From Limisphaerales bacterium (GTDB taxonomy: Bacteria; Patescibacteriota; JACMRA01): DNA of 34,795 bases. Positions 1-30,621 of the stretch are shown one piece after another; within the stretch, counting starts at the first letter, position 1, and the number at the start of each line of letters is the position of its first letter. The notes under the pieces were generated by a model. It saw nothing but the letters and a program-made list of their open reading frames with translations. It ran no database searches and was not told the DNA's origin. The translations under genes and the position numbers were made by a program. Location: contig JBIIDY010000002.1 of NCBI GenBank assembly GCA_044238065.1, forward strand, positions 1-34,795, read 5' to 3'.

Positions 1-93
1 TTGGTTAAAAATTTCAGAATTATTAGCGGAATTTGTAGATATAGACTGAATAAAATAGCTAAAAGATTTAATTTAATTTGTGGAATTTGTAAC

Positions 94-483
94 CTAAAAA
101 ATGTTTAACGCAAGAGGTCTATTATGTCCAATGGTTCTTTTCCAAACAATAGTATTCCTAAAATTCCCTTCGCCAAAGATTTTATCCAAAATATAAACCC
201 GAATGTAGGCGTCCGCATGCCAGTCGCAGTGGAGATAAAAACTCCCGGTTGGTTTGAGAATGCGATGAATTTCTTGCACTCTTTCTTTGAGCCAGCCGAT
301 ATAGTGATCCACTCCGCCACTCCACCGATCTTCAAAACTCCGCACTTCGCCCTTGTCGCCCCAAATCACTTCGTAGTTACGATTAGAGAAAAACGGCGGA
401 TCAATGTAGCAAAGGTCAACACTTTCACTAGGTAAATTTTGGAGAGTTTGGAGGCAATCGCCGAGGATGAGAGAGTTTAGCAT
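94..483 (-). pseudogene. N-terminal fragment (129 aa) of a beta-class N4-cytosine/N6-adenine DNA methyltransferase; the C-terminal SAM-binding half is missing
   Basis: The translation starts MLNSLILGDCLQTL and contains catalytic motif IV DPPF (LCYIDPPFFSNRNYE) and GSFYLHCDWH, typical of the N4/N6 MTase family. The ORF stops after 129 aa, and no FxGxG motif I is visible in any frame of nt 1-93. Confidence 0.7.
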
Positions 484-559
484 AAAAAAAAGTTGACTGG
501 AATAAAAACTTGTGATATAATACGATTATCATAATTTTTAATTTATTTTTTTGTCAAAG
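445..559. repeat. Repeat unit R1: methyltransferase 5' codons (minus strand) plus bidirectional promoter region
   Basis: The core gcataaaaaaa[a]g/cttgactggaataaaaacttgtga[t/c]ataatacgatta[t/c][c/t]ataatttttaatttatttttttgtcaaag is shared nearly base-for-base with 1029-1143 and slightly less well with 1751-1866. Confidence 0.9.
493..557. promoter_or_regulatory. Overlapping face-to-face promoter pair in R1
   Basis: Plus strand: TTGACT (493-498), 17 nt, TGaTATAAT (513-521, extended -10). Minus strand: TTGACA (557-552), 18 nt, TATGAT (533-528). The two -10 boxes are 6 nt apart and point at each other, so the predicted start sites overlap. Confidence 0.65.
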
Positions 560-564
560 TGTGT

Positions 565-1027
565 ATGGAAAAATTACCAAATTCTGAAAAACCAAAAATA
601 ACCAAAGATGAAGTAAATCAATTAGTATATACAGAGGATTTTCAACAAATGCCAAACGGAGATGCTAAAATAAGCAAAAACAATCTTTAAAGAATATACT
701 AATAATAATCGTTTTACTGGTGAATGCTACGATATAGAGAAATTATTGTTAATAAGTTTTTATGTTTTGGGAAGCGGGGCAAATGTAGTTGAAGATAATA
801 ATTATTACATCTGTACACCATACGATCAAACAATAATTAATTGCCTCGTAATAAGATTTGGAAGACCTGACTTAGCTTGTCACAGTGAAGTAAAAGGTCT
901 GGGCAGTGAACCACACATACATATTCATCAAAATAAAAAATCCAAAGAAATTAATTATGGCTATGAAACTACTAAATTCATTGGTAAAAATCTACATGTT
1001 ATGGTTAGACAAGATGAGTATTATTAG
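565..1027 (+). pseudogene. Cassette-1 cargo: hypothetical ~150-aa gene apparently split by a +1 frameshift in an A-rich run
   Basis: ATG at 565 opens a 41-codon ORF (MEKLPNSEKPKITKDEVNQLVYTEDFQQMPNGDAKISKNNL) ending at 690. The next frame is open from 674 to 1027 (AKTIFKEYTNNNRFTGECYDIEKLLLISFYVLG...), overlapping at aaaataagcaaaaacaat. The second part contains RPDLACHSEVK, a possible PD...ExK signature. Confidence 0.4.
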
Positions 1028-1028
1028 A

Positions 1029-1143
1029 ACTTCCAAACCGCCAGCCGAGAATTAGAGAGTTGAGCATAAAAAAACTTGACTGGAATAAAAACTTGTGACA
1101 TAATACGATTATTATAATTTTTAATTTATTTTTTTGTCAAAGA
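1029..1143. repeat. Repeat unit R2: orphan MTase start stub (MLNSLILGWRFG on minus strand) plus promoter region
   Basis: Hand alignment to R1 shows only a few substitutions or indels across the ~80-bp core. No methyltransferase body is attached. Confidence 0.9.
1076..1140. promoter_or_regulatory. Overlapping face-to-face promoter pair in R2
   Basis: Plus strand: TTGACT (1076-1081), 17 nt, CATAAT (1099-1104). Minus strand: TTGACA (1140-1135), 18 nt, TATAAT (1116-1111). The leftward promoter has only an MTase stub ahead of it and would read antisense into the 565-1027 ORF. Confidence 0.6.
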
Positions 1144-1713
1144 ATGAGTCTTGAATTTTCTCCCCACGAAACTGTTGATATAGAAACATTTATGATTGTA
1201 CTTGGCGGTATGTTGCCAAATAGGGATAACCATTTTTACTTTAATGGGCAAGGAGAAGAAAATTCTACTGTTCGTTTTGTAATTGCTGATTGTACTCATT
1301 TAGAACGAGAATTTGAAATAGATACTGATTATTCTACACAAAAAGAGCAGTCGATAACTTTTCATTTCATTCCTTTTGGGAGAAAAAATCTTGCTTTGAA
1401 TAACGATAGGGAAAAACTTTTGTCAAAAATTGGAACTTTAATGACTTTAGTTTTGATTTACGAAAAAGCTGTTGAAAATAATGTGGATTATCTCTTGGTT
1501 AATACTAGATTCGAAAAGCTACATAATTTTATAGTTAATAATTTAGGTTATAACTTGATTACCAACACAGATGAGGGTGAGTATTTAAATTATAAAAAAT
1601 CTATAGTAGAAATTTCTTATAAAATAGTAAATGTAAAGTTAGAAATTAGTGGTTTATGTTCTAAAAATAAAATAACAGAAAAAGAAATAAAAGCAGTTTT
1701 TTGTATTAAATAA
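1144..1713 (+). CDS. Cassette-2 cargo: hypothetical protein (189 aa)
   Basis: The ATG lies directly after R2. It is a long ORF in AT-rich DNA with no motif I can assign. Confidence 0.55.
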   Translation: MSLEFSPHETVDIETFMIVLGGMLPNRDNHFYFNGQGEENSTVRFVIADCTHLEREFEIDTDYSTQKEQSITFHFIPFGRKNLALNNDREKLLSKIGTLMTLVLIYEKAVENNVDYLLVNTRFEKLHNFIVNNLGYNLITNTDEGEYLNYKKSIVEISYKIVNVKLEISGLCSKNKITEKEIKAVFCIK

Positions 1714-1750
1714 AATTACTAGAAAATAGGTAATTTAAAAACTTTCTAAA

Positions 1751-1866
1751 ACTTTCCAAACCACCCGCCAAGGATGAGAGAGTTTAGCATAAAAAAAACT
1801 TGACTGGAATAAAAACTTTTAATATAATACGGATATTATAATTTTTAATTTAATTTTTTGTTAAAG
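1751..1866. repeat. Repeat unit R3: orphan MTase start stub (MLNSLILGGWFGKF on minus strand) plus promoter region
   Basis: Hand alignment to R1 and R2. It is more diverged in the -10 and 5'UTR part (cttttaatataatacggatattataa). Confidence 0.85.
1800..1864. promoter_or_regulatory. Overlapping face-to-face promoter pair in R3
   Basis: Plus strand: TTGACT (1800-1805), 17 nt, TATAAT (1823-1828). Minus strand: TTAACA (1864-1859), 18 nt, TATAAT (1840-1835). Confidence 0.55.
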
Positions 1867-1894
1867 GATTGGAATTTTTAGTAAAAAAATAATC

Positions 1895-2872
1895 ATGAAA
1901 AATTTTTCGTCACATGAGATGAGAGAAGTTCCTTTGGAAAGAGGTGAAGCTTTGCGAAATATAAAATTTATTGATGGAATAAGAGAAGCTGTTTTTATGT
2001 TAAATATTTCCCCACATAATATTATACATATAGGTGGTACGGCGATATTTTATCACACTCAAAAAAAAATACTGGATTTTCTTAGAGAGAAACACCCTTC
2101 AAAACATAAAACAGAATTAACAAGATTGGCAAGCTTCATAGCCAAAACAATGTATAGAGGTACACATGATATTGATCTAATTACTAAACAAGAATCTGAC
2201 ATTTCGCAAATTATTGGAAAAATGGAAAATAATAATTTAGGCTGCTTTGTCAAAAAGGAAATTTCTCATTTGGAAAGTAAGAGGAAGCTTGGGTTTAGAT
2301 TAAATAGGAATCCATATTCATTCTATAAAAAAAAGCAAGAATATAGCGACTATCCTAATACAGATATTTTTGAAATGGATGAATATTTTTTTACAAAACG
2401 TGAAGATTCGTATTTGCTTCATTTTAATGAAAGAATAGTTGAGTGTAATACTGGTTCGGATTGGGATAATAATAATTTTCCAATTATTAAAGAAAACCCA
2501 CTTTTATTAGATCTTGAAGATGAAAAAGGATTGGTTTGCGTTCCTACATTGCTAGATTGTTTTTTATTTAAAACAGATATTATCACTTTTAGTAAATCTG
2601 GGCTAAGACCAAAAGATTGTGTGGATATTTTATTTTTAGTTAGTAACTTTAGTCAAACAGACTCTAAAAATGCTATTATGGAAATAAAAAATAGTCCTGA
2701 CGCTAAAAAAAAGTTTTTAGAATTAAATAATTTATTATCAAATAAGGATAAAGTTATCCAAGAATTTAGCTTGGGTGTCGGCTATTCTTTTAAAGAAAAT
2801 ATAGGAAATGCTATTTTTTGTGAGAAAAAATTAAATGAATTTAAAAAACAAATGGACAGATATAAAAATTAA
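1895..2872 (+). CDS. Cassette-3 cargo: Pol-beta-superfamily nucleotidyltransferase resembling AbiEii/AbiGii (DUF1814) type IV toxins
   Basis: An N-terminal HIGGTAIFYHT is followed by RGTHDIDLI, matching the hGG...R.[ST].DIDh pattern of AbiEii-type NTases. The spacing between the two motifs is longer than usual. Confidence 0.45.
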   Translation: MKNFSSHEMREVPLERGEALRNIKFIDGIREAVFMLNISPHNIIHIGGTAIFYHTQKKILDFLREKHPSKHKTELTRLASFIAKTMYRGTHDIDLITKQESDISQIIGKMENNNLGCFVKKEISHLESKRKLGFRLNRNPYSFYKKKQEYSDYPNTDIFEMDEYFFTKREDSYLLHFNERIVECNTGSDWDNNNFPIIKENPLLLDLEDEKGLVCVPTLLDCFLFKTDIITFSKSGLRPKDCVDILFLVSNFSQTDSKNAIMEIKNSPDAKKKFLELNNLLSNKDKVIQEFSLGVGYSFKENIGNAIFCEKKLNEFKKQMDRYKN

Positions 2873-2932
2873 ACTACATCAATAACCAAAAAACTATTTT
2901 AGACTGGGAAAATTGTCAATAGGAAATACAAA

Positions 2933-2996
2933 ACCACCAAACCATCTACCGAGGATGAGAGGTTTGAACATAAAAAAACCTTGGCTGGAATAAAAA
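2933..2996. repeat. Repeat unit R4: degenerate partial copy (stub MFKPLILGRWFGG on minus strand; -35 mutated to ttggct; -10 half absent)
   Basis: accaccaaaccatctaccgaggatgagaggtttgaacataaaaaaaccttggctggaataaaaa aligns to the left half of R2 and R3. Confidence 0.7.
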
Positions 2997-3100
2997 AATA
3001 CATTTATTAAACTTGTTACTATTTATACCTTGAAACTATCAATAAGTTTCACTTCTCTAAGTGTAAGATTTGGTCGTGGAATGGGTATAATCAAGTTTTT

Positions 3101-3628
3101 TTAGGACTTTTTTTGGAAAGTAGACAGGTATAAAAAAGCGATGGGGCCGATATGCCAAATCCAAGGGACAATTGACCACAAATTGACCTCTTCTACCGTA
3201 ATCACATATTCTTCTGGGTAGCTATTTTTATAACCTCCCAAAAAACGGATAAACCATTTTGGCCACCATTCTCTCGGCATTGGCTGGCTTGGAAAACTAA
3301 GATTGAGAATATAAATAAAAAAACCTAAAACCAACATTCCAAAAAACCAAATTTGCCAAGATTTTTCAAACTCACCTTTGGCGAATAAGTCCAATTTCTC
3401 CACCACAAATTTGCGAATTAATAATGTAATAACCAAGCAAACAAAGAATAAAACAAGCCAAATTGGACCGTCAGTTTGAATTTTAAAATTAAGAGAAGAG
3501 AGAAGACTCAGAATCCACGCCGCAACCCTACCAATCAAATCCTGGGCAACCTGGAAAACGAAAAAAGAAATCAAAGTGGCAACATAGTAAGCAGATAGCA
3601 GACTTTTGCTAAACTTAAATTCTTTCAT
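3101..3628 (-). CDS. Hypothetical multi-pass membrane protein (175 aa)
   Basis: The ORF has several hydrophobic segments (LISFFVFQVA, IWLVLFFVCLVITLLI, IWFFGMLVLGFFIYIL). Confidence 0.5.
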   Translation of the reverse strand: MKEFKFSKSLLSAYYVATLISFFVFQVAQDLIGRVAAWILSLLSSLNFKIQTDGPIWLVLFFVCLVITLLIRKFVVEKLDLFAKGEFEKSWQIWFFGMLVLGFFIYILNLSFPSQPMPREWWPKWFIRFLGGYKNSYPEEYVITVEEVNLWSIVPWIWHIGPIAFLYLSTFQKKS

Positions 3629-3831
3629 ATTTTATATTTATAATAAGATTTTTTCAAAACTTGGAAATTTGAGTTTTTGATTTTTGAAATTTTTTACCCA
3701 ATTTGTTTTGATTATGGGCTTTAATAAAAAAGTTAAACAAAATTAGAGCCAATTTAATAATAGCCAATTTAATCAATTTTAGAATTAAACGATTTAGATA
3801 ATTTTTCAATTTTTTTTATAGGGTTAAATTT

Positions 3832-4068
3832 CTAAGCAACTACTTCAGCGTTATTTTCTACGACTTTGAAAGTAATAGTTTTGGAAACTGGTGAACAACT
3901 TTGAATTTCTACAGCTTGACCAATTGTAAAAAGTGAAGAATCTGAGCAACTACACGCATATCGCTTTTTGACTTTGAAAGATTTTTTGTATTTTGTGTGA
4001 GTTTTTTTGCGGAAAACAGTAACAATTACAGCTTTGGTCATTTTGTTGGATGTGATAACACCTGTCAT
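3832..4068 (-). CDS. rpsQ: 30S ribosomal protein S17 (divergent, stand-alone)
   Basis: GVITSNKMTKAVIVTV...HTKYKKSFKVKKRY...IGQAVEIQSCSPVSKTITFKVVE aligns along its length with the E. coli S17 pattern GRVVSDKMEKSIVV...HPIYGKFIKRTTK...GDVVEIRECRPLSKTKSW.LV. Confidence 0.8.
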   Translation of the reverse strand: MTGVITSNKMTKAVIVTVFRKKTHTKYKKSFKVKKRYACSCSDSSLFTIGQAVEIQSCSPVSKTITFKVVENNAEVVA

Positions 4069-4547
4069 AAATTATGTTAAAAAAGGTATAAAAAATGTAG
4101 AAAATTGGTTGATATTTTTTTGAAAACTAAGAAAAACAAGTTTAAATTTTCAGGAAAAGAGCAAAAACACGTTGAATTGACTATTTATAATAAATAAAAT
4201 TTTGTCAAATAAATAACCATAAAACCTTATCAAATCTTTTCCAATCTTCAAAAAATATAGTAATTTTCAAAGTTTCTACAATTTTTATCATTATTTTTAC
4301 GATTATTTCATTATTTTTTATACAAGCTTTATTTTATTTCTGTCTTGATTTATTCAAAATTCTGGGATTAAAACTTGGGGATATCCACAGCGATTCTTGG
4401 AAATTTCTAACTTTCAGGATAAATTGACCAAAAGAAAAATTTGTTTCAAAATAATCAAAATTATGCTTTTTTTATGTTTTCGTAAAATGTCTCAAATAAA
4501 ATGTCTCAAACTGTAATTCCAAAATATCTTTATCAAAAACGTCAAAC

Positions 4548-4577
4548 TTGACAAAAATTAAAAATAAGGCTTATAAT
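4548..4577 (+). promoter_or_regulatory. Sigma70-type promoter upstream of 4669-5172
   Basis: TTGACA (4548-4553), 18 nt, TATAAT (4572-4577). Confidence 0.5.
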
Positions 4578-4668
4578 TCCTTCTTGCCAATTTATCAACA
4601 AAAATTAAAAACCAAAATTCAAAAAGTAAAATTATCAATCAAATTTTTTCAACCAATTCCCCTAAAAT

Positions 4669-5172
4669 ATGAAAAATAATAATTCAACTTCCAAAATACA
4701 ACCAAACTTTTTGGCTCAAATTTTTTCAAAATCAACTCTTGCAAAATTGGCTTTTTTACCTTTTGTTTTGGCATTATTTTTGGCCGTATCAATTTCAGGT
4801 TTTGCCGAAGAAGAAAATTTGACCCCAGCTTCACCAGCCATTCCTGTGGCCCCTTCCTTTGACCAAACTCAAAGCACTGCTTCATCAGAAATTTCCAGTT
4901 CCTCTGTTTCCAGCTCCAGTCTTTCCAGTTCGTTATCCAGCAGTTTATCTTCTTCAGTTTTTTCTAGTCTTTCCAATAATTCAAGTTTGTCCAGTAAATC
5001 CCTAGATTTGGTTTTACTAGCCAGCACGAACCAAGATAACACGGTTAGAACAGGAGGATTTTCCACTTTATTGATTTTTATGACAATTTTCATGGGAATT
5101 ATCGGCTTTCAGTATCGCAACTTTATCCTAAAAAATCGTGGTTTGAAAACCAAAGAAAAAAGGATCAAGTAA
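4669..5172 (+). CDS. Secreted Ser-rich low-complexity protein with a C-terminal sorting-signal-like anchor
   Basis: It has an N-terminal signal-like segment (LAFLPFVLALFLAVSISGFA) and a long S-rich tract. The C-terminus reads VRTGG, then a hydrophobic stretch (FSTLLIFMTIFMGIIGF), then a basic tail (KNRGLKTKEKRIK). Confidence 0.6.
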   Translation: MKNNNSTSKIQPNFLAQIFSKSTLAKLAFLPFVLALFLAVSISGFAEEENLTPASPAIPVAPSFDQTQSTASSEISSSSVSSSSLSSSLSSSLSSSVFSSLSNNSSLSSKSLDLVLLASTNQDNTVRTGGFSTLLIFMTIFMGIIGFQYRNFILKNRGLKTKEKRIK

Positions 5173-5385
5173 CCAAATCTGGCTTGCAAATTTCTCAACC
5201 CTCTTTCAAAGCTCAAACACAGAAAATACAGAAAAAAATATAGAAAAGTCATTTTTATTTGAAATACTACGGATTAAATTGAGTCAAATTTGAAATTGAT
5301 AAGAGTTATAATTTTTGTAGACTTATAATTTTGAGGCTTTTTCAGGCTTTTTATTTAAAAAAACTCGAGTAAAAATCAAATGAAT

Positions 5386-5411
5386 CTCTGGAAATATGTC
5401 TATTAAAAAAA
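5386..5411 (+). repeat. 26-bp exact repeat, copy 1 (ctctggaaatatgtctattaaaaaaa)
   Basis: It is identical to 16785-16810. It contains ATGTCTATTAAAAAAA, which opens only an 11-codon ORF here. Confidence 0.85.
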
Positions 5412-5454
5412 TATCAAAGAAAACTAATTGAAATACCAACTTTAATCAGTCAAA

Positions 5455-6237
5455 TTAGGAAAGCTTATCATTTTTGTCAAAAAGTGTGCCGCTAAAAATG
5501 GCCAAATCTTCAGTTTCCAAAACAGAATTTACCCGTTTACCGTTCGTCAAAAAAACCTTAATCCCAGCCTCATTTGCCCTGCTGATAGCCTGGAGTTTGG
5601 CTCGCATTCCGCCAGTTCCCAGTGTGGATTTACCACTTGCCATTGACAGAATTTTTTCATCTATTTTTTGGATTTTCTTGATAATTTTGGCATCAGGGTT
5701 TTCTTTCGGATTCATATCATAAAGCCCGTTAATGTCAGACAAAATAACCAATTTATCTGCCCCAATCGCCAAAGATACTTCTACCGCCAGACTATCATTA
5801 TCCGTGAAAATAGTGTCAATTTCTTCAGTGGAAACGGCATCATTTTCGTTAATAATCGGCACAATTCCCATTTCTAAAGCCTTGTAAAGACAGTTTTTGA
5901 AATCTTGAAGGTTGCGAGAATTGAGAAAAATACTGGAGGTGATCAGGTGTTGAGAGACAATTCTATCACCAAAACAAGTCTGCCAGCGACTCATCAAAAC
6001 CGCCTGCCCAACGGAAGCACAAATCTGCTTGGTGGTAATTTCCTCATTTTTTGGCCTTTCTGTCATAGCCAAAGTACGCATACCACAGCCGATTGCCCCC
6101 GAAGAAATCAAGATCACTTTTATACCTTTTTGAACGAGTTTTTCAGTTTGTTTAGCAATATTGGACATTATCTCCAAATCCAATTTGCCAGAATCATCGG
6201 TAATTGTGGTCGTGCCAATTTTGATTAAATAAAGCAT
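5455..6237 (-). CDS. proB: Glutamate 5-kinase (short form without PUA domain)
   Basis: SSGAIGCG, IVPIINENDAVSTEEI, DNDSLAVEVSLAIGADKLVILSDINGLYDMNPKENPDAKII and GTGGMRAKL match ProB and amino-acid-kinase motifs. Confidence 0.85.
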   Translation of the reverse strand: MLYLIKIGTTTITDDSGKLDLEIMSNIAKQTEKLVQKGIKVILISSGAIGCGMRTLAMTERPKNEEITTKQICASVGQAVLMSRWQTCFGDRIVSQHLITSSIFLNSRNLQDFKNCLYKALEMGIVPIINENDAVSTEEIDTIFTDNDSLAVEVSLAIGADKLVILSDINGLYDMNPKENPDAKIIKKIQKIDEKILSMASGKSTLGTGGMRAKLQAISRANEAGIKVFLTNGKRVNSVLETEDLAIFSGTLFDKNDKLS

Positions 6238-6569
6238 AAAAATGAGTCAAGGTTGAAAAATGATTATAAAAGTATTGGTGGGAAAATTGGTGGAAATTAT
6301 ACAAAAGTTTGATGATTTTTAAGTTTGCTTTGGACTTATTTTCAGAATTTTTGAGATTTTTTCAACTTTGTCAAAAAGTACTTAATTTCAATAAAATAAA
6401 TTGTTTTTAGTTTAGTTTTCAACAAGTTCTAAAATAGAATAAATTTTGCTAAATTGTCAATTGCTACTTTGAGGCATTACCAGTATTGCCAAAATATCCT
6501 CCAGAGAACTCAAAATTCTTACCAGCTTATACTTGACTTGGTTTTTTACCGATTATTTCCCGCTTTCCC

Positions 6570-6708
6570 GTCATTGCGAATGAGTGACCAAGTGGAGCCA
6601 TAGGAAACAGAGGCTAGGAAACAGAGGCTAACGAAGTAACCTTTTAACACTTTATATTTAGCTTTACCAGATTTTACCACTAGATCACTTCATTTCATTC
6701 GTGATGAC
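6570..6708 (+). repeat. GC-rich MITE-like dispersed element, short copy
   Basis: gtcattgcgaatgagtg...aacagaggctaacgaagtaac...tagctttaccagattttaccactagatcacttcatttcattcgtgatgac has the same ends and internal blocks as 20290-20566. The ends are imperfect inverted repeats (GTCATTGCGAATGA versus the reverse complement GTCATCACGAATGA). Confidence 0.7.
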
Positions 6709-6835
6709 ACCCTGCGGCTTGTTTATGCCAAAATTTATACCGTAAAATAACTCTGCTAATCAATGGCGACGCAGTGGTCGCCTCTACAAGGGGAATTTTT
6801 TGTTCCAAGTTTTCTAATTTTGTAATTTTGATTTT

Positions 6836-7510
6836 CTACATTTTGGTTTTAAAATCGTCCAAAAAGTGCTTGGCAATTAGGTTTTGCCCATTTTCTCTAC
6901 TAATTCCTCGTGTTTGGAGATATTCTTGGAGTTGGCGATCTATAAACGAAGTTGTTGTGTTGTGAACACATTTTTTGGGTAATTGATAAACTTCCAAAAA
7001 CGGAGAGATTTTATTTTGAATTTTTTCACCCAAAATTAAGTTGTGATTTTGGAAACTAGCTTGACAATTTTGCCCTTTGATTATAATTTTTGCCAAAAGA
7101 TCCAGATTATTTTTGACCAAAAAAGCCGAGTTTATGTTGACTTGACAGTCATTTGCCATTTGCCAAACAACAATTTGAATTTCCACTATCTTATCAATTT
7201 CTCCAAAAACTTGAACTTCACTTTGAGAATTTTCCCCAATTTGCCAGATATTGATAATTAATTTTAATTTATTGTTTTTCGTTTTTTTTACTTGATTTGC
7301 CACTTTGTCTGTTTCCAATTTTTCCAAAAAAGAAATTTTTAAAAACAAGCTAGAATTAGCCAATTGAACGATGTTGAGATTACGACTTTCGGTAGGATTT
7401 TTTATTTCCAAATAGTGTTTGCCAATTATTTCAATATTTTCGAGTTCAATCACCAAGCTTTCCTTTTCCTGCACCACTTCTTTTTGCAAAATATATTGAT
7501 TTTTTTTCAT
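6836..7510 (-). CDS. SufB/SufD-family Fe-S assembly protein (short, orphan)
   Basis: The C-terminal ISPFLEVYQLPKKCVHNTTTSFIDRQLQEYLQTRGISRENGQNLIAKHFL matches the P.LEI..d.V.c.HgaT.g.ld.eqlfYL.sRGi....A..li..gF pattern of SufBD proteins. Confidence 0.6.
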   Translation of the reverse strand: MKKNQYILQKEVVQEKESLVIELENIEIIGKHYLEIKNPTESRNLNIVQLANSSLFLKISFLEKLETDKVANQVKKTKNNKLKLIINIWQIGENSQSEVQVFGEIDKIVEIQIVVWQMANDCQVNINSAFLVKNNLDLLAKIIIKGQNCQASFQNHNLILGEKIQNKISPFLEVYQLPKKCVHNTTTSFIDRQLQEYLQTRGISRENGQNLIAKHFLDDFKTKM

Positions 7511-9922: not shown

Positions 9923-10570
9923 CTATTTTTCCTCTTTAGCAGCATCTTTAACACCCTTGACAACTTCAGTTACCACGGTAGTTTCGGTTTCAGTTTCTAC
10001 GGTTTGACCAGATAGAATGACAAGAGGTAGATCGCTTTCAGTTATTATCTTGTAATTTTCGTTTAATGGTAAGTCGGTGATTTTGATAGAATCGTGAATA
10101 TGAGCCAAGTTAGTTACATCTATTTGAATTTCTTCAGGTAAATTATTTGGCAAAGCTTCAATTTTAACTTCGTCGATATTGATAACCAAAACACCACCTT
10201 CTTCCTTGATGCCAAGTGCTTCACCAACGTAAACCAGTGGAACAGAAGCGGTAATTTTTTCTTTGAGATTAACTGCCAAAAAATCAACGTGGCGTAAAAC
10301 CCCTTTAACTGGATGAATGTCAATATCCTGAACCAAAGAAGGTTGGATTTTAGTTTTGCCTTTTTCATCGGTGATTTCTATGTTGACGACATGGGTTGTG
10401 CCAGCAGTTTTGATGGTTTTGTAGGCAGTTTTGTAGTCAATTTCTATCGCTTGAGAGCCAGTTTTTTTGGAATAGACGACAGCTGGTAAGAGTCCAGTTC
10501 GGATAAGTTTTTTGGCTTGATGTCCGAGCATGGTGCGGACTTTGGCTGGAAGGGTAATGGTGGTAGACAT
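9923..10570 (-). CDS. rplY: 50S ribosomal protein L25 / general stress protein Ctc
   Basis: LPAKVRTMLGHQAKKLIRTGLLPAVVYSKK...HVVNIEI...VQDIDIHPVKGVLRHVDFLAV is the typical L25/Ctc fold signature, followed by an acidic C-terminal extension. Confidence 0.85.
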   Translation of the reverse strand: MSTTITLPAKVRTMLGHQAKKLIRTGLLPAVVYSKKTGSQAIEIDYKTAYKTIKTAGTTHVVNIEITDEKGKTKIQPSLVQDIDIHPVKGVLRHVDFLAVNLKEKITASVPLVYVGEALGIKEEGGVLVINIDEVKIEALPNNLPEEIQIDVTNLAHIHDSIKITDLPLNENYKIITESDLPLVILSGQTVETETETTVVTEVVKGVKDAAKEEK

Positions 10571-10703
10571 TTCAAAATAGTCAGAAAATAAAAAATTGCG
10601 ATTTGAATTGTGGTTGTAATCAGTAGTTACAATTGCGCGTAAAATTAGTCAAAATAGATTTTTGAAAATTGTCAAATTTATTTCTTAACATGGTAAAAAA
10701 TTC

Positions 10704-10766: not shown

Positions 10767-12083
10767 ATGGATAATACAATAATAAAATTACGCGGCAGTA
10801 AAAAAGAAATTACAAACAACATTGGGGGGGTATCAATAACAGAAACTATAACTTACATTCTTACGCAATGTATTGCCCAACTCAATATTGACAAGACCCT
10901 AATACAGCAGTTTTTGTCAAAACTTGAATCTTTAGATAAACCTTTAACAAGCGATGGTTTGCTGGCTATGTTGAATGATAAGGAAATGGGCGTAGAAACA
11001 TTGGGTATTATTCTTAAGCTTTCTTATGTCAAGGAAAATGGTACAGGTGAAAATCGATCTTTAGAATGGCAAGTATCTTCAGAAAAATTAGCAAAACTAC
11101 TCAATGATTTGTATAATTCTCATGAAGCTAAAGAATACATGGATACACTGCTTGGTAGCATTGTAGCTTATAAGGGTCATTGTGGGATTAAAAATAAAAA
11201 TAATAACCATTTTGAATTATACCCAATTGATTACGGAACTCGTAAAACTAGAGGAATGATTTTATCCGAAGCTCCACAAATTAGACAGATAATAGAAAAC
11301 AACCTTGCAATATCACACGAAGTTAGACAGCTTTTTTTTGCTTTTGGTATGTATGAAATTTTTGATGTGATTGGTCCGTATTTAGATGATCCAAACTTTA
11401 GAGCCATTTTGCGAACAGAACTGAATAATGGAGGCAGATCTGAAACCATATTAACTGTTGCTGATATTATTTCTATAATTTGCTTAGAAAATCCTAGTAA
11501 AGATGAAACTACATATGGTAAAAATAGGCATTGGGACTATTGGAAAAATATATCTGAAGCTATAGGGAGCCCTACAACGCAACAAGACTCTAAACAAATT
11601 GGCGATGCTTACGGTTTAGGCAGCCAAATTTTAGAAAGATATGCGTCAAAATATGAGAATGAACCAAAATATAAAGAATTAGATGCTGTATGGGAAATTA
11701 TTTCACAATTGTATGATGAAGGTGAAATGCCTGATAAAAAGGAATTTGATGAAAAGATTGAATTATATGAAAGGCTAAATTCTACTAGAAATATAGTAAA
11801 TTATGAAACATATCTAAAATTGCAAGCTATGAAAAAAATAGCTGAATATTTAGGTTATGACGAAAGTTTGAGTGTGTTTTACGAATCAGAAGGTGAAGAT
11901 TTTGATGGCACAATAGAAAAGATAACCAAAGGGGTTGAGGTGGCAGACAATGAAGCTTTGAAAGAATTATACCGTATTTTATCTGCAGAAAAAACAAAAT
12001 CACCTGAAGAGATAAATAAACAAAAAGAAGTTGATGAAAAAGATGGAGAAGGGGAAAATGATCTTGATGATATATGGGGTTAA
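10767..12083 (+). CDS. Hypothetical protein (438 aa) with acidic C-terminal tail
   Basis: This is a long ORF. I prefer the ATG at 10767 (MDNTIIKLRGS) because the TTG at 10704 in the ORF track coincides with the -35 box. I recognise no P-loop, nuclease or other motif. Confidence 0.65.
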   Translation: MDNTIIKLRGSKKEITNNIGGVSITETITYILTQCIAQLNIDKTLIQQFLSKLESLDKPLTSDGLLAMLNDKEMGVETLGIILKLSYVKENGTGENRSLEWQVSSEKLAKLLNDLYNSHEAKEYMDTLLGSIVAYKGHCGIKNKNNNHFELYPIDYGTRKTRGMILSEAPQIRQIIENNLAISHEVRQLFFAFGMYEIFDVIGPYLDDPNFRAILRTELNNGGRSETILTVADIISIICLENPSKDETTYGKNRHWDYWKNISEAIGSPTTQQDSKQIGDAYGLGSQILERYASKYENEPKYKELDAVWEIISQLYDEGEMPDKKEFDEKIELYERLNSTRNIVNYETYLKLQAMKKIAEYLGYDESLSVFYESEGEDFDGTIEKITKGVEVADNEALKELYRILSAEKTKSPEEINKQKEVDEKDGEGENDLDDIWG

Positions 12084-16660: not shown

Positions 16661-16743
16661 TTCACTTTTTCAAAACCAATTTTCACTTACTTTTGGCCAA
16701 ACTTTGCGAAATCTAAATACTTTTTCAAAACCTGAAAATTTTC
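16661..16743 (+). repeat. ~85-bp dispersed repeat, copy A (inverted partner at 30622-30706)
   Basis: The reverse complement gaaaattttcaggttttgaaaaagtatttagatttcgcaaagttt...gttttgaaaaagtgaa aligns with taaaattttcaggttttggaaaagtgtttagatttcaaaaagttt...gttttggaaaagtgaa at 30622-30706. Confidence 0.8.
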
Positions 16744-16784
16744 TAAATTATATTTTTGGAGGTTGTTCTAAAAACTAACCAAAA

Positions 16785-16974: not shown

Positions 16975-17421
16975 ATGACTACTCAACTCAACGATAAGCA
17001 AAATGAACTATTAACAGAATTAAAAATTGATCCAAAATCTCCTGATTTAGTGGCGGAAATTACTGCCAAAATTGAAGCTTTAAAAAATAGTCAAAAAACC
17101 GAAATTCGCACCGTTTTGAAATTACCACTGAAACTTGCTCCCTACAAATTCGCCGTTTTACCACTGATGAAAAAGGATGGACTTCGAGAACTTGCCTTTT
17201 CAATCTACACCAATCTTAGAAAACAAGGGATTAGTTGTGATTTTGATGATTCTGGTAGTATTGGCAAAAGATACCGAAGGCAGGACGAAAATGGCACCCC
17301 GTTTTGTATTTGTGTGGACTACGAAACTTTGGAAAATAGCACCGTAACTGTCAGAAACCGAGATACTATGGAACAAACTCGTGTAGCAGTCGCCAACCTA
17401 AAAACCTTTGTGATGAATTAG
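16975..17421 (+). CDS. glyQS: Glycyl-tRNA synthetase C-terminal anticodon-binding domain only; a truncated gene or stand-alone HGTP-anticodon protein
   Basis: LKLAPYKFAVLPL...DDSGSIGKRYRRQDENGTPFCICVDYETLENSTVTVRNRDTMEQTRV matches the class II GlyRS C-terminal domain (IGKRYRRQDEIGTP). The catalytic core is absent, and the upstream 415 bp is stop-rich in all frames. Confidence 0.8.
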   Translation: MTTQLNDKQNELLTELKIDPKSPDLVAEITAKIEALKNSQKTEIRTVLKLPLKLAPYKFAVLPLMKKDGLRELAFSIYTNLRKQGISCDFDDSGSIGKRYRRQDENGTPFCICVDYETLENSTVTVRNRDTMEQTRVAVANLKTFVMN

Positions 17422-20002: not shown

Positions 20003-20289
20003 AAAGATAGGTAAAAATGGAAAAAGTTAAAATTTCAAAGTTATGAGAAACAGCCCTGGAAAATAAGGATTTGTTTTCTTTATAATTTCTTTATAAATTC
20101 ATTATATCTCAAAAAAAAGACTCTGTCAAAAAACCAAATTTCCTGTTAAATTTCCTGTTAAATTAATCTAAGAATATCTTTGAAAATAAGTAAAAATACC
20201 TTGAAAACATTTGACAGGAAGGCTTTATACCCAAAAGCCAACTTATATAGTAGTTAATTCATAATTTTCACGCCATTGCGGGCTTCTCT

Positions 20290-20566
20290 GTCATTGCGAA
20301 TGAGTGTAACGAATGGGTGCGGGAACAAAGAGACCAAGCGAGCGTAGCGAACAGACCCAAAGGGAACAGAGGCTAACGAAGCAATCTTCTGGGTCAATGC
20401 GTTTCCCCCCCCCACTACCCCGAATGAGTGTATGGGAACGAAGTGAATAAGCGATAGTGAATGTGGAAAGAGCGACCAGACTAAAGAGAACAGAGTATAG
20501 CGAAGCAATCTTTTTTTAGCTTTATTAAATTTTACCACAAGATCACTTCATTCCATTCATGATGAC
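20290..20566 (+). repeat. GC-rich MITE-like dispersed element, long copy with internally duplicated core
   Basis: It has the same termini as 6570-6708 (gtcattgcgaatgagtg ... tagctttattaaattttaccacaagatcacttcattccattcatgatgac). Two internal ...gaatgagtg...cgaagcaatct blocks replace the single block of the short copy. An extra right-end copy, ttcattcgtgatgac, lies at 20607-20621. Confidence 0.7.
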
Positions 20567-20804
20567 AGCCTGTAGTTTTGTTCTTTACTGGTTAAGTTAA
20601 TTATTTTTCATTCGTGATGACCCTGACCTTTTGGTTTTTCAAGGTTCAAGCTGCTTATATTTACAAACTTTTTTCAAATTGCCAAGTATGAGTTAATGCT
20701 GGGTTGGGCATAGCTTTTCACCTAGTCGCTTCTTTCCCGCAACCCTTCGCAAAGAGGTGATAAAATAATCTAAATAAAATGAACTTCTAGAAAATAAACC
20801 TTTG

Positions 20805-21617
20805 CTACTTCATCTTGCTAATTTTATTTTGCCAGTTGATATTTTTGACTATAATTTTGGTACAATAAATTTCTTTTTGCTCTATTTGATTGACAACCCA
20901 AACCAGATTCAAAACTGTGTTAATTTTGGCAACAAACCATGGGCCTCCCGAAAGATTGAGATTTTGCCTTTGACCAGTGGTGTATAAAAAAGCTCCTTTG
21001 TGACTACCTAAAACCCGATAAACCTCTCCATTTTCCCAATTTTTCAAAAAAACCTGTTTTCTATTTTCTACAATTTGATCCAAAATTTTATCGTAAGATT
21101 CCTGGTTATTAATTATTTCTTGGTTTTTTGGCTTATTTTTGTCAACCTCATCACTATTATTCTCATCATTCTTTTGCCAGTTTTGTTCGCCAAACTTTTT
21201 CAAAAATTCCCAATCAATAGCCAAAATCTGCTTTTTAGTGAGTTTTTTTAGACTTTGTTCCAAAGATTTCATGTCCGAAAAATTTCTAAATTCCAAATAT
21301 TCTTTTTTAGCCTCAAAATCTAATTCCGTTTTGTCATTGGTGTTAATTTTGGTAATAATCAACCCATTTTTTCGCCCGATACTTTCTAGTAACATTTGAC
21401 TAAGCGAAGTCTGCCCCACAAAACAGAGGCCTTGAGAATCTTTCTTGGCAGCCGTAATCAGCCCATTTTCTTCAGCGAATTCACGAACTTTGGCTTTGTT
21501 CTCAAACTCTCCAACTGGTAATAAAATTTTGGAAAGTTGCTCTTTTTTAATTTGCCACAAGAAATAAGACTGATCTTTGGCTGGATCTTTGGCTTTGAGA
21601 AGTTGGTATTTGGACAT
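20805..21617 (-). CDS. mnmA: tRNA 2-thiouridylase MnmA C-terminal portion only (PP-loop ATPase domain missing), with a long low-complexity insertion
   Basis: KDQSYFLWQIKKEQLSKILLPVGEFENKAKVREFAEENGLITAAKKDSQGLCFVG matches the MnmA block KDQSYFL..L....L....FPLG...K.EVR.IA...GL..A.K.DSQGICF. No SGGVDSS motif is present. The ATG at 21617 (MSKYQLLKAK) is the first plausible start. Confidence 0.75.
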   Translation of the reverse strand: MSKYQLLKAKDPAKDQSYFLWQIKKEQLSKILLPVGEFENKAKVREFAEENGLITAAKKDSQGLCFVGQTSLSQMLLESIGRKNGLIITKINTNDKTELDFEAKKEYLEFRNFSDMKSLEQSLKKLTKKQILAIDWEFLKKFGEQNWQKNDENNSDEVDKNKPKNQEIINNQESYDKILDQIVENRKQVFLKNWENGEVYRVLGSHKGAFLYTTGQRQNLNLSGGPWFVAKINTVLNLVWVVNQIEQKEIYCTKIIVKNINWQNKISKMK

Positions 21618-22324
21618 TGGAATTGTGAATTTGGTATTAGATTTTGTCAGAATTTCTGTAACTAAATTTCTGTAGAATTTTGAAAACTGGTTATGTAATT
21701 TTTTACTAAAAAAGACAAAAAAAGATAAATAACTACAATTGGTAAAAAAAACGAGGAAATAGTCAAAAAAGTAATTTTGTGATAATTTCAAATTTTTGGC
21801 TCAAACATTACAATAAATCTAAAAAAAACGTTTTGGATTTAAATAATTCTTGGAGTAAATTGGTTTTTAAAAAATTGGTTTCCAGATATTTTCTAGTAGT
21901 CAAAATGCCAAAAAACCGTGAAATAATTTTGTTAAATTGTCAATTCTTTGAATTTGTTCGTAACGTTTCTATTTACTTTGGTCGCCGATTTGCTTTAATC
22001 TTTCTCTTGGTAATTGCATTCTCGCACCTAGTCTTCTACAGGAATTGCCCAAAGCCAAAAAGCTATTTTCCAAGCCACAAAATATTAAAAAGTTTAGCTT
22101 GAGTTTTGGAATTGAAAGGCAAATTTTATCTTTATTTTGAAACGTTTTGAAATTTTATAGTTTCGTTTTAATAATTATTTTTTGGTTTTCAGCTAGATTT
22201 TATTGATAGTATTTTGACAAAATTTTACCACAAATGTGAATTATTAAGCGTTGTGATTGATAAAACTTGACAAAAATTACAGCTTTGCTTTTGGTTATTT
22301 TATACACAGAATCAAAACATTATT

Positions 22325-27600: not shown

Positions 27601-27804
27601 GGACTTGCAAAGGGTGACAGTCAAAAAAGTCTATTAAAATCACAAATATTGGAAATACAAATCCCAATCCCAGTAATACCATCAGGTGAATTTGACTTAG
27701 AGGCTCAACAAGAAATCGCCAGTAAATACCAAAAAATAGAGCAAATCAAACAAAGTATTTTAGTAGAGCTTGATAAAATATCAAAAACTGAAATTGAATT
27801 GTAA
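24658..27804 (+). CDS. Single-polypeptide restriction-modification-specificity enzyme (type IIB AloI/CjeI-like architecture): N-terminal PD-(D/E)xK nuclease, gamma-class N6-adenine MTase and two HsdS-like TRDs
   Basis: The nuclease motif is RKPD(53)GLIVDKKGVMAVVE(67)NK(69). The MTase motifs are GQFFTP (X), ICDPACGVGKFLLE (I) and LILANPPY (IV, aa 448-454). There are two HsdS-type target-recognition domains (aa ~690-830 and ~875-1010). Each TRD is followed by a conserved helical spacer (EIDYEKQQEIIEKYE and EFDLEAQQEIASKYQ). Confidence 0.8.
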   Translation: MSEELLQRGLNLNPEKIGTWDFYNIGATTIKALKNYKIIPNRDYKGFETRKPDGLIVDKKGVMAVVENKNISKFKSLKDKQKAVQQGLEVAQVLGAKIVIATDSVNTTWINALNGEEILDEKGREIKTVFDPKNPDIAKLIERMVDCVRVDNSKLIEPRLKDPTKLAKSVWQDLWSVSGATPENCLYTFVELFIFKYLSDLGVLKGRLSYQFLMGQFQEETEEEVLTYYADTIRKRVKELFPAGNDGTTIINGTIFVSKDDVAVKGYGTVFKKILVKFGDEREGGGELTNIDKDFKSKLFETFLKESISKKNLGQFFTPLKVVKAMVEMAKSEIKPGISICDPACGVGKFLLEPLIAGDNIEQFFEVKNGKLNTKIDLWGVDKGFDKDEQRTIILAKANMLIYLSDLIRKHSDITPQFAEFFNKSFELKNKNILGTLQDTKKDEFDLILANPPYVTSGSSNLKDEIAKNGDLQAYYKINGMGVEGLFMEWIIRALKPGGKAFIVVPDGIFNRQNDKNLRQFIIDECFIDGIISLPIKTFFTTPKKTYILAITKKQNKSEIQKDPVFTYLVSEVGESRDIYRFDIEQNDLQKAVELFNAFKFSKDYFVKNNIDTRCKLQPFERLNPEDNWTVEKWWSTEEQIELGILEKDKTIAFEEVPALLDEIAENILSFKEEINELSQKKKIEIGLQEYKIEDLFDLNIKTNTSKFTKSFVEQNKGNIPVYSASKFEDTPDYGYVKDNLLGIKYFEDCLTWNIDGSIGKAFIRKGRFSLSEKVIPLVLREKFKEKFNLKFLKYEIENEFAKKGFDFSNKAGKGKIKDILIEIPISQSGEIDYEKQQEIIEKYEYTEKLKQKIEEYKKQIKEIQVEITNDYEVKIIKIGSIFDFKKGTNEFNKTKIELEKGKYPVYSGQTLNNGIIGFSNKWQYDGEFIRITTVGVNAGYVDLVKSKFSLAQNNGILIKNTNINFLDINYIFLSLKIKTDGLAKGDSQKSLLKSQILEIQIPIPVIPSGEFDLEAQQEIASKYQKIEQIKQSILVELDKISKTEIEL

Positions 27805-30307: not shown

Positions 30308-30621
30308 AAAAAAAATTAAAAAGTAAATGTGAAAAAGGGTAAAAAATAATTTAGGAAATTGCCAAAAATTTCAAGTTTATTATGAAAATTGCCAATACTG
30401 AAAGCATCAAATAAAATTTAATTTGTGTCAAATGAATAAATCAAAGTCAAAATAAAGGTTAAAACAAACTCATATTTTTCAGCTTAAAATAAAGGCTTTA
30501 TCGCTACTAAAATAAAAATTGTCAAAGTTCCAAGCAAAATTAATTTTTTCTATTCTGGTTCTAAAAGCAGGTCTTCTTGATTTCACTTGGTTTTTACAAC
30601 AGTCTCAAAAAATAAAATTAT

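Follow-up and report, generated by a model that had tools for sequence, protein, structure and literature searches.

A strain-variable array of single-gene cassettes separated by repeat units with predicted divergent promoters and the first codons of a DNA methyltransferase gene

In an uncultured freshwater bacterium, the array is bordered by a DNA-methyltransferase gene on one side and by a conserved flank with a membrane-protein gene and rpsQ on the other. The whole stretch of DNA analysed, 34.8 kb in length, is referred to here as the window. Three full repeat units of ~101–115 nt (445/459–559, 1029/1042–1143 and 1751/1766–1866) and one half unit (2933–2996) were identified among the cargo genes. 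The features are as follows.

1–125, plus strand: right end of an insertion sequence (IS) with an HTH_Tnp_4 + DDE_Tnp_4 transposase and terminal inverted repeat TTTAACGCAAGAGGTCTATTA; interrupts the methyltransferase gene
94–483, minus strand: methyltransferase fragment, the N-terminal 129 aa of an N6/N4 (beta-class) DNA methyltransferase; last few codons derived from the IS
445–559: unit 1, with methyltransferase codons 1–8 on the minus strand (ATG at 483) and a predicted divergent control region
493–521: predicted plus-strand promoter of unit 1, TTGACT-17-TATAAT, with TG
557–528: predicted minus-strand promoter of unit 1, TTGACA-18-TATGAT
565–1027, plus strand: cargo 1 (A'/D'), a pseudogene chimera with ORFs at 565–690 (41 aa) and 746–1027
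1029–1143: unit 2, with the D-tail (CCAAACC) and a stub ORF from 1067 to 1005 (MLNSLILGWRFGSSNNTHLV)
1076–1104 and 1140–1111: predicted plus-strand and minus-strand promoters of unit 2, the latter matching the consensus at 12/12 positions
1144–1713, plus strand: cargo B, 189 aa, an orphan protein with no family match
1751–1866: unit 3, with the B-tail and a stub ORF from 1790 to 1746 (MLNSLILGGWFGKF)
1800–1828 and 1864–1835: predicted plus-strand and minus-strand promoters of unit 3
1895–2872, plus strand: cargo C, 325 aa
2933–2996: terminal half unit, with the C-tail and a decayed stub ORF from 2971 to 2894 (MFKPLILGRWFGGF...)
3101–3628, minus strand: gene for a predicted membrane protein of 175 aa in the conserved right flank; in every strain the array has its fixed end here
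3832–4068: rpsQ, in the right flank beyond the gene for the 175-aa membrane protein

The 101-nt cores of the full units are 87–92% identical to one another and form direct repeats of ~100 bp. The repeat occurs at the four places named by an earlier, sequence-only reading, with the fourth copy degenerate. The 19-nt core TTGACTGGAATAAAAACTT, with up to 3 mismatches allowed, was found in the window 4 times where 0.1 would be expected, and 0 of 100 shuffles reached that count. The array is reproduced with 100% identity in the independent assemblies Logan SRR27422089 (across window positions 926–6698) and ENA ERZ27280204 (1748–3107), and the gene order of a 34.6-kb JGI contig matches that of the window. 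These matches indicate that the array is genuine. The left edge of the contig does fall inside a repeat (the IS), as might be the case if repeats had been collapsed or mis-joined; however, different samples and assemblers yield the same joins, and the 8–13% difference between units allows contigs built at k=141 to tell them apart, so that an assembly artefact is hardly credible. No RNA family was detected at E ≤ 1 by an Rfam search of window positions 1–4500, and no terminator was predicted within 1–4200. An alternative genetic code with UGA read as glycine was rejected, since UGA readthrough does not lengthen the real genes.

Each full unit contains methyltransferase codons 1–8 together with a predicted pair of sigma-70 promoters, which overlap, point in opposite directions and come close to consensus in a promoter-match scan. 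The ~115-bp unit therefore corresponds to the complete predicted divergent control region of the methyltransferase, plus its start codon and 8 codons. The plus-strand promoters (TTGACT-N17-TATAAT/CATAAT), already recognized in copies 1–3 by the sequence-only reading, are among the top promoter-like matches within positions 1–4200, and their −35 hexamer is invariant across six full unit variants from three strains. That reading had overlooked the divergent minus-strand promoter of each unit (TTAACA or TTGACA-N18-TATAAT/TATGAT); the top promoter-like matches on both strands come from the units. In the terminal half unit the −35 element is mutated (TTGGCT), the −10 element is missing and the homology stops at GGAATAAAAA. 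The right edge of the unit reads GTYAAAG, and the cargo gene starts 1–31 nt beyond it; the two edges (YCCAAAC ... GTYAAAG) have only AAC/GTT triplets in common. The proposed layout of a promoter-per-gene cassette array is supported at the level of predicted promoters.

On the minus strand, the stub reads MLNSLILG in copies 1–3 and MFKPLILG in copy 4, and the stub ORFs stop after 14–25 codons. The variant continuation G[WGR][RW]FG is common to copies 2–4 and absent from copy 1, as noted before. Only copy 1 is attached to a methyltransferase body, which is matched by Pfam N6_N4_Mtase (E=1e-14, profile positions 1–84 of 221) and by PADLOC MTase_II (E=1e-29). The truncation of this gene stands and is caused by insertion of the IS, a full copy of which is found in L004 and the same end of which occupies positions 1–54 of L051. 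The IS is separate from the cassette system. In the related strain L051, the orthologue is an intact 594-aa protein covering N6_N4_Mtase positions 1–219 of 221; its C-terminal half gives a sub-threshold Mrr_cat match (20.3 bits against a cutoff of 21). The full catalytic and AdoMet-binding domains expected of a type II restriction-modification (R-M) methyltransferase are thus complete in L051 and interrupted by the IS in the window. The earlier description of a decayed type II R-M system holds for the window strain only and does not apply to its relatives with the intact gene. Profile searches identified no restriction gene separate from the methyltransferase and no nuclease signature in any cargo. 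No cassette array accompanies P0006, an 85% relative, or P0007, a methyltransferase relative at greater distance.

The cargo genes are unrelated to one another. Cargo 1 was previously taken as one ORF, which proved wrong: ~37 first codons of cassette gene A are joined out of frame, at about position 675, to what remains of cassette gene D, namely its 3' two-thirds, whose frame is open from ~674 to 1027, and the junction represents a microhomology deletion. The full-length counterparts are 76 aa (gene A, in relatives) and 172 aa (gene D, in L053). Cargo B has only 2 homologues among 5.8e9 proteins, and its AlphaFold model is of low confidence (pLDDT 54). Cargos A, B, D and E have no match in Pfam, NCBIfam, PHROGs, PADLOC or PDB sequence searches, and no relatives of cargos C, B or E were found in GTDB representatives or IMG/VR. 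Overall, the cargos sit in sequence clusters of 1–8 members. A PRTase-like motif in cargo E (ILVVSEALNTGGN) was noticed by eye and found no support from any search.

Cargo C belongs to a family with 45 cluster representatives among 1.84e9, in whose alignment G47, G48, R88, G89, D92, D94, K129, D162, D221, K226 and D244 are invariant. This motif set (GG, RGTxDxD, D, K...RxKDxxD) resembles that of AbiE, a type IV toxin-antitoxin system, and 8 of 38 family members match PF08843 AbiEii (best E=5.6e-6). In contrast, the window protein itself stays below threshold (PADLOC AbiEii, E=0.01; DUF6036, E=0.003; no Pfam AbiEii match), and the upstream AbiEi antitoxin gene of AbiE systems is absent, as unit 3 directly precedes cargo C with no partner ORF. 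Foldseek places Pol-beta-type nucleotidyltransferases, including 4ok0, at the top for a low-confidence query model (pLDDT 54). These similarities hint that cargo C may be a distant AbiEii-like nucleotidyltransferase of the Pol-beta fold. The abortive-infection assignment made earlier agrees with the motif set and with some relatives, and not with the score of the protein itself. A defence or addiction role of the cargo is plausible, although the label of a defence or addiction island was overstated, being based on one weak AbiEii-like similarity among cargos otherwise devoid of a detectable family.

The comparison of strains revealed differences in both gene content and order. From the methyltransferase to the right flank, the window carries A'/D', B and C, L051 carries A+B and C, and L053 carries A+B, D and E. 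Cargos D and E of L053 are not in L051; the window lacks E and retains only the D' remnant, and cargo C is not in L053. The cassette order is permuted, with B before D in L053 and D' before B in the window. C-type and E-type ends occur together in one sample, ERZ27280204. The expectation that cargo would differ between strains is borne out across all three, and the opposite picture, a static arrangement of housekeeping cargo, fails because the contents differ. The array might be a passive relic without cassette function, left behind as a decaying genome full of repeats underwent one segmental duplication after another and was rearranged illegitimately or through IS and MITE elements; the strain differences would then be due to simple deletions. 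Several observations fit such a history: IS and MITE-like elements abound in the genome together with several truncated-looking genes, cargo C of L051 is split by MITE-like insertions, the A'/D' chimera arose by a microhomology deletion, the window methyltransferase is disrupted by an IS and the cargos are orphans. However, the occurrence of D and E only in L053, where C is missing, would require a much longer common ancestral array if deletions alone were at work, and deletions do not account for the permuted order. The conserved promoter hexamers and stub codons, the stubs having changed at synonymous sites only, also speak against a relic, as does gene B, whose 5' end is only ~65% identical between strains and whose body is 98–100% identical, indicating recombination with a pool of diverged alleles. 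We consider the relic unlikely.

Further signs of exchange were found at the two ends of the array and within the units. Between strains, identity is 91.8–96.7% on the methyltransferase side and 98.9–99.6% in the right flank, and on the methyltransferase side the window and L051 show no similarity past the conserved N-terminal part; this far greater divergence indicates imported DNA. Downstream of D, the window and L053 share an identical unit as far as TTTGT; it leads to B in the window and to E in L053. In the unit after B the haplotypes switch near the −35 element, and the terminal units switch in an A-run. These breakpoints at varying positions within the unit, seen among about 4 haplotypes and hence reflecting few events, fit homologous crossover and not one fixed cleavage site.

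The left junction of the units is more uniform. In all four tails the stub is joined at the same codon with CCAAACC in common, the L003 haplotype passes into unrelated DNA exactly after CCAAAC, and the methyltransferase has an inverse CCAAAC at almost the same offset. Within codons 1–8, all 7 of 7 changes of the B, D and E tails relative to the resident gene are synonymous (P about 2e-4), and the D stub has CTC and ATT in common with the methyltransferase allele of L051, in line with the earlier proposal that the stubs do not derive from the resident allele. These features would be expected if a recombinase encoded elsewhere (of tyrosine, serine, Xer or other type) inserted cassettes as circles between codons 8 and 9 of the methyltransferase, where the cassette's own promoter and 8 codons would restore the gene and push the previous N-terminus and promoter inward. 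Under such site-specific displacement the stubs would be former real N-termini, for which synonymous-only changes are expected, and decay is indeed greatest in the most distal unit. A comparable case would be the stacking of islands at tRNA or ssrA genes, which leaves repeated gene-end stubs, and the ssrA islands of Dehalococcoides, whose tandem ssrA-end repeats stem from serial integration, offer a precedent (PMC3146451). On the other hand, the exchange points lie at differing positions, the order of cassettes is permuted, and the unit has neither dyad symmetry nor a hairpin. CCAAACC as a dispersed site was rejected, as its 9 occurrences in the window against 5.2 expected are no enrichment, and a look-alike at 18819 has no stub. 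Judged by eye, a dif/Xer-like site in the unit seems improbable, the palindrome spacing being unfitting and not conserved.

A recombinase gene, which such insertion would call for, was not found nearby. Pfam analysis of the 33 largest ORFs of the 34.8-kb window (41–1048 aa, including every non-overlapping ORF ≥100 aa) revealed neither an integrase nor, apart from the IS remnant, a transposase domain; the cassettes likewise have none, and no integrase was called in the 13.9-kb L051 contig. The earlier statement that no recombinase is visible in the window therefore remains valid except for the IS remnant and RecA, which is encoded at 28375–29505, is at most 62% identical to that of any GTDB representative and has its best matches across several phyla. 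Overall, we view site-specific displacement as rather unlikely. Beyond the locus, the 19-mer core gave only chance single matches, be it in genomes of GTDB representatives, in metagenome contigs of JGI or in IMG/VR, and the tail/stub junction pattern (27 specified bases) gave zero matches in GTDB representatives and IMG/VR.

With about an even chance of being right, our preferred reading is a strain-variable, integrase-free array of single-gene cassettes, with the promoter units as portable sites at which homologous recombination reshuffles it. As direct repeats of this length and identity, the units make general RecA-type recombination between them possible, and we infer that cassettes could thereby be deleted, duplicated or re-ordered, excised as circles with one unit and re-inserted at any unit, or possibly swapped in from other strains. 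The rightward promoter, predicted to be strong, and the AU-rich leader of a unit would drive the downstream cargo gene, and an acquired ORF would gain both ready-made. The overlapping leftward promoter, also predicted to be strong, would lead into the methyltransferase start codon and 8 codons. As the leftward promoter of the next unit faces the 3' end of each cargo gene, convergent antisense transcription is expected. The shared stub codon and CCAAACC and the L003 break after CCAAAC are not predictions of plain homologous recombination, which alone also leaves the first arrival of a new ORF between two units unexplained. A bolder possibility, which we regard as doubtful, is a previously undescribed integrase-free gene-capture platform, in which the highly conserved methyltransferase 5' end and bidirectional promoter serve as both recombination handle and expression signal, new cassettes push the old N-terminus and promoter inward, and the displaced leftward promoter or micro-ORF acts as a built-in antisense regulator of adjacent, possibly toxic cargo, as in a promoter-carrying functional analogue of integrons for defence or addiction genes driven by RecA or a host recombinase.

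If the units do act as recombination handles and two-way promoters, expressed accessory arrays can be built and reshuffled without an integron integrase, a widely shared gene lending its control region and opening codons. The displacement-array principle of Rhs/CdiA 3' ends would then hold for a 5' end and promoter too, those of a restriction-modification gene, and the locus would be a natural example of cassettes each with a sense and a convergent antisense promoter. Because the cargos are such extreme orphans, these arrays may be worth searching, in uncultured lineages, for defence or toxin genes not yet described.

Among known systems, integron arrays and CALINs share single-ORF, strain-variable cassettes, repeats of ~60–140 bp between them and ORF starts a few nucleotides from the repeat edge. 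The likeness to integrons drawn earlier nevertheless fails on two counts, the integrase and attC structure: the array has no IntI integrase, and its repeats are neither imperfect palindromes nor single-strand folders, as ssDNA hairpin folding of the full units on both strands showed no excess over shuffles (z = −0.5 to +1.8). An integron with attC sites was therefore rejected. Moreover, the repeats here are putative bidirectional promoters in duplex DNA; most cassettes of integrons, by contrast, have no promoter of their own and rely on Pc. In the minimal mobile elements of Neisseria and in defence-island hot spots, accessory genes are swapped between conserved flanks by homologous recombination without mobility genes of their own. 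Differing accessory genes in one slot between conserved flanks are likewise found here, but those systems are not known to have internal repeated promoter units or gene stubs, and they exchange via the flanking genes. Accretion of integrative elements (at tRNA, ssrA or fda, PMC3146451; IME/CIME, PMC5704250) similarly leaves target gene-end stubs as direct repeats between cargo. Those elements, however, are kilobases long, at least one carries an integrase, they duplicate the 3' end of a gene and their crossover is fixed, whereas the cassettes here span 0.6–1.1 kb with one ORF and no integrase, repeat a 5' end with its promoter and break linkage at no fewer than three positions in the unit.

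In the orphan-module arrays of Rhs/CdiA, as here, each of several unrelated, strain-variable modules follows a stub that repeats a conserved part of the main gene, displaced modules accumulate beside the main gene and decay with distance, and there is no dedicated recombinase. In the Rhs model, homologous recombination with circular intermediates makes arrays of displaced stubs (Jackson et al. 2009, PMC2935791), and the scheme preferred here would move this tip displacement from the 3' end to the 5' end and promoter. The differences are that the repeated part is the 5' end (only 8 codons) and promoter instead of a 3' core; that the cargo has an ORF to itself, on the strand opposite the stub and not fused to it in frame, where Rhs/CdiA modules carry a toxin tip read in frame and an immunity gene; and that each module appears to retain a strong predicted promoter of its own, so that none would be silent. 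By analogy, the array is best read as closer to Rhs tip displacement than to an integron.

Repeat scanning and ORF reading re-derived the repeat reported in the sequence-only reading, whose description of it proved correct. The features of the window are:

1 to about 125: right end of an insertion sequence (IS), also found at 1-54 of the related contig L051, and whole with terminal inverted repeats in the related contig L004
459-559, 1042-1142 and 1766-1866: units of 101-115 nt (by direct reading and repeat scan)
445-559, 1029-1143 and 1751-1866: the unit copies with the methyltransferase stub (minus strand) included
2933-2996: half copy of the unit
24658-27804: fused ORF of 1048 aa with N6_Mtase and two type I specificity (Methylase_S) domains

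The 101-nt unit cores share 87-92% identity. The 19-nt core TTGACTGGAATAAAAACTT, with up to three mismatches, matches four times in the 34.8-kb window against 0.1 expected, a count reached in no shuffle. The minus strand of the unit copies carries an ATG and the residues MLNSLILG (MFKPLILG in copy 4); copy 1 reads through into the N6_N4 methyltransferase, and the stubs of copies 2-4 run on as G[WGR][RW]FG and stop after 14-25 codons. The plus-strand promoter proposed earlier for each unit is indeed predicted by sequence match (TTGACT-N17-TATAAT, with CATAAT in copy 2), but a predicted minus-strand promoter in each unit (TTGACA/TTAACA-N18-TATAAT/TATGAT) had been overlooked. Units hold six of the seven strongest promoter-like matches in 1-4200, and in each unit the two predicted -10 boxes are no more than about 10 nt apart. 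Given predicted promoters on both strands, the unit appears to comprise the first eight methyltransferase codons together with the gene's entire divergent control region. No terminator-like site was found anywhere in 1-4200, so each cargo is expected to be transcribed from its own unit, and the leftward promoter of the next unit would be expected to drive antisense transcription that meets the cargo 3' end. An Rfam search of the array region gave no match, and single-strand folding of the units does not exceed that of shuffled controls (z = -0.5 to +1.8), indicating that they are not attC-like.

The array repeats are not an assembly artefact, a possibility raised with the first description, as independent assemblies carry the same joins. 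These are reproduced at 100% identity in Logan assembly SRR27422089 (window 926-6698) and in ENA MEGAHIT contig ERZ27280204 (window 1748-3107), and the gene order is identical in a 34.6-kb JGI contig. The units differ from one another by 8-13% and are therefore resolvable by k=141 assembly.

Contigs of closely related strains were retrieved from public assemblies with the cargo proteins and the flanking S17 protein as queries. The locus position is constant, with the methyltransferase on one side and, on the other, a 175-aa membrane-protein gene and then rpsQ. The question of whether the cargo varies among strains is answered by the haplotypes, in which both content and order of the cassette genes A to E differ:

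L051: intact 594-aa methyltransferase, unit, A (76 aa) and B (189 aa), unit, broken C, half unit
L053 (GCA_943355195.1): methyltransferase, unit, A and B, unit, D (172 aa), unit, E (232 aa), half unit
Window: unit, A'/D' (chimera of A and D), unit, B, unit, C, half unit
L003: methyltransferase, unit, A'/D'', then unrelated DNA (Na/Ca-exchanger gene) right after TTCCAAAC

Array ends of the C type and the E type co-occur in sample ERZ27280204. In L051, A and B are separated by merely a degenerate right half unit, and the window gene B is preceded by its own full unit. Cargo C of L051 is broken by two MITE-like insertions (10207-10602 and 11143-11365), one holding a 116-nt tandem pair and the other bearing the terminal inverted repeats GACCTATTTCCTAATTCC / GGAATTAGGAAAGAGGTC. 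The first window cargo, initially read as a single ORF at 565-1027, is not one: frame 1 ends in a stop codon at 690, and another frame stays open from about 674 to 1027. Gene A contributes its first ~37 codons, which run out of frame into the final two-thirds of a D-type gene across a short A-rich microhomology, and this join accounts for the window's A'/D' cargo. Between the window and L051, gene B shows about 65% nucleotide identity over its first ~15 codons and 98-100% over the remainder, a pattern indicative of recombination with a pool of diverged alleles.

The methyltransferase (heading METHYLTRANSFERASE) has an intact orthologue of 594 aa with a complete N6_N4_Mtase domain, followed by a below-threshold Mrr_cat match, and this orthologue may be a fused modification-restriction enzyme. 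The gene is interrupted in the window strain only, by a multi-copy IS with the inverted repeat TTTAACGCAAG[A/G]GGTCTATTA and a transposase (HTH_Tnp_4 and DDE_Tnp_4) split into two ORFs. The truncation noted in the sequence-only reading thus stands, and its cause is IS insertion, as the whole IS in L004 indicates; the multi-copy IS is probably also the reason for the contig end. The methyltransferase alleles of the window and L051 (leftwards from 135 and 8327, respectively) are homologous over the N-terminal 542 nt only, at 93.5% identity, so the presumed target-recognition regions differ between the two. As the alleles differ though the right flank is 99.6% identical, the methyltransferase is polymorphic in the population. 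Between strains, identity is 91.8-96.7% on the methyltransferase side versus 98.9-99.6% on the right flank. The N-terminal ~110 residues share 70-85% identity with methyltransferases of many phyla (all of the 120 homologue matches listed, P0005-P0124, are 111-226 aa long), and this conservation makes the region a good homology anchor for imported DNA. No array lies next to the 80-85% identical relatives from other organisms (P0006 and P0007). Downstream of P0006 (85% identity, 222 aa), an IS200/IS605 Y1 transposase was seen in four different contexts (L061-L064).

Exchange points were located by aligning eight unit variants. The unit after D is identical in the window (before B) and in L053 (before E), including the distinctive CATAAT -10, with divergence confined to the right edge (TTTGT|YAAAG). 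For the unit after B, the left part is common to all strains, whereas the right part is of one type before C and of another before D, with the switch near the -35. In the terminal half units, the left parts are cassette-specific and the right part is identical, with the switch in an A-run. The three cases fit no single crossover point, and these few independent events argue, on the alignment, for homologous recombination at variable positions in the unit.

The main rival is site-specific displacement, by which the stubs would once have been working N-termini pushed inward by later insertions. It would explain why codon 8 is the last stub codon before the tail in all four cassettes (B, C, D and E), each tail having CCAAACC a few nucleotides beyond the junction, why the methyltransferase carries the inverse CCAAAC at a near-identical offset, and why the L003 haplotype breaks exactly at the CCAAAC motif. 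Relative to the resident codons 1-8, the B, D and E stubs carry seven differences, every one a synonymous change at a third position (P about 2e-4 if substitutions were random), and two of those in the D stub are common to the L051 methyltransferase allele. Stub C, the most distal, has three non-synonymous changes, and its promoter is decayed. Conversion from methyltransferase alleles would also fit these stub patterns, as would a function of the 14-25-aa stub peptides. CCAAACC shows no enrichment in the window, and no candidate recombinase was identified; as first observed, the window holds no integrase or resolvase domain, and its sole transposase domain belongs to the IS remnant at the left end. 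Site-specific displacement is for these two reasons, the unenriched motif and the lack of a recombinase candidate, ranked below homologous recombination between units.

Under homologous recombination, the units most likely act as portable expression signals as well as recombination substrates. Recombination of two units would delete or loop out the intervening cassettes, a one-unit circle could re-enter at any unit, and unequal exchange would duplicate and re-order cassettes. Segments from other strains could be exchanged in, bounded by two units or by the conserved methyltransferase 5' domain and one unit. By analogy, this would be the published displacement scheme of Rhs tips (PMC2935791) moved onto a gene 5' end and its promoter.

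Cargo C has 2 homologues in a set of 5.8 billion proteins and 45 cluster representatives in a set of 1.84 billion. The invariant columns of the family (G47 G48, R88 G89, D92, D94, K129, D162, D221, K226 and D244, with R238, K240 and D241 nearly invariant) follow a motif order which, judged from the alignment, is that of Pol-beta-type nucleotidyltransferases of the AbiEii/DUF1814 kind. The earlier assignment of an abortive-infection-type nucleotidyltransferase gains some support from the family motifs and from Pfam AbiEii matches in 8 of 38 members (best E=5.6e-6), but the window protein itself gives sub-threshold matches alone (DUF6036, GrpB, and PADLOC AbiEii at E=0.01). Its AlphaFold model is of low confidence (pLDDT 54), and the best Foldseek matches to it are Pol beta/lambda, TdT, small alarmone synthetases and the H. 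pylori putative nucleotidyltransferase 4ok0. Cargo C has no AbiEi-like partner gene, and its homologues elsewhere lack units, standing singly among housekeeping genes (L049) or occurring as tandem paralogues (L050). Cargos A, B, D and E match no family in Pfam, NCBIfam, PHROGs or PADLOC, and alignments of E and of the C family match no PDB sequence. A, D and E fall in sequence clusters of one or two members and C in a cluster of eight; no relatives of B, C and E were found in GTDB representative genomes, nor of B and C in IMG/VR. A diverged B homologue (66% aa) lies without a unit on the 631-bp contig L162 of the same sample (ENA ERZ27280204), directly followed by a short ORF starting with MNRKNNSIREIFQRMHKMGKKVAEIAQ that is cut off at the contig end. 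The R-M neighbourhood, the variability among strains and the AbiEii-like member make defence or addiction a reasonable guess at the cargo role.

The window (GC 31.7%) is chromosomal, encoding RecA, ribosomal proteins L10, L25 and S17, SecE, ClpP and a Mur ligase. RecA (28375-29505) shares at most 62% identity with any GTDB species representative, its best matches being scattered over several phyla, which indicates a deep-branching, uncultured lineage. Some sample codes, by their names, presumably stem from lake-metagenome studies. The 1048-aa fused ORF looks, from its domains, like a fused M+S type I/IIG-like enzyme and a second R-M-type gene of the window. The rpsQ gene (S17, 3832-4068) stands alone beside the membrane-protein flank, with other ribosomal-protein genes absent within several kb. 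Several housekeeping ORFs are seemingly truncated: SufBD core keeps its C-terminal part only (6836-7510), a 148-aa ORF at 16975-17421 holds the HGTP anticodon domain alone, and MnmA at 20805-21791 is without its N-terminal part. Reading UGA as sense was rejected because it does not lengthen real genes, so the standard genetic code applies; nor does a code change mend the truncated ORFs. Together with the IS/MITE-like load, they suggest ongoing gene decay or unusual gene structures. Two dispersed intergenic pairs, one direct (6555-6714 vs 20275-20572, 81-87% identity) and one inverted (16661-16757 vs 30609-30705, 77% over 97 nt), are possibly further MITE-like elements unrelated to the unit.

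A non-exhaustive text search found no description of an array whose repeat is a bidirectional promoter plus a methyltransferase 5' stub, and we know of none; its known distribution is one lineage. Integrons, the analogy drawn earlier, resemble the array in having single-ORF cassettes, repeats of similar size and content that varies by strain, but the array lacks the integrase and attC structure that define integrons. Rhs/CdiA orphan arrays share the logic of a stub plus a variable module, whereas here the cargo is unfused to the stub and, judging by its predicted promoters, not silent. Tandem island accretion at tRNA/ssrA genes (PMC3146451, PMC5704250) likewise leaves repeated gene-end stubs, but here the integrase is absent, the cassettes are tiny and the exchange points variable. 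By analogy, we rate the array as belonging with displacement or cassette arrays in hypervariable loci.
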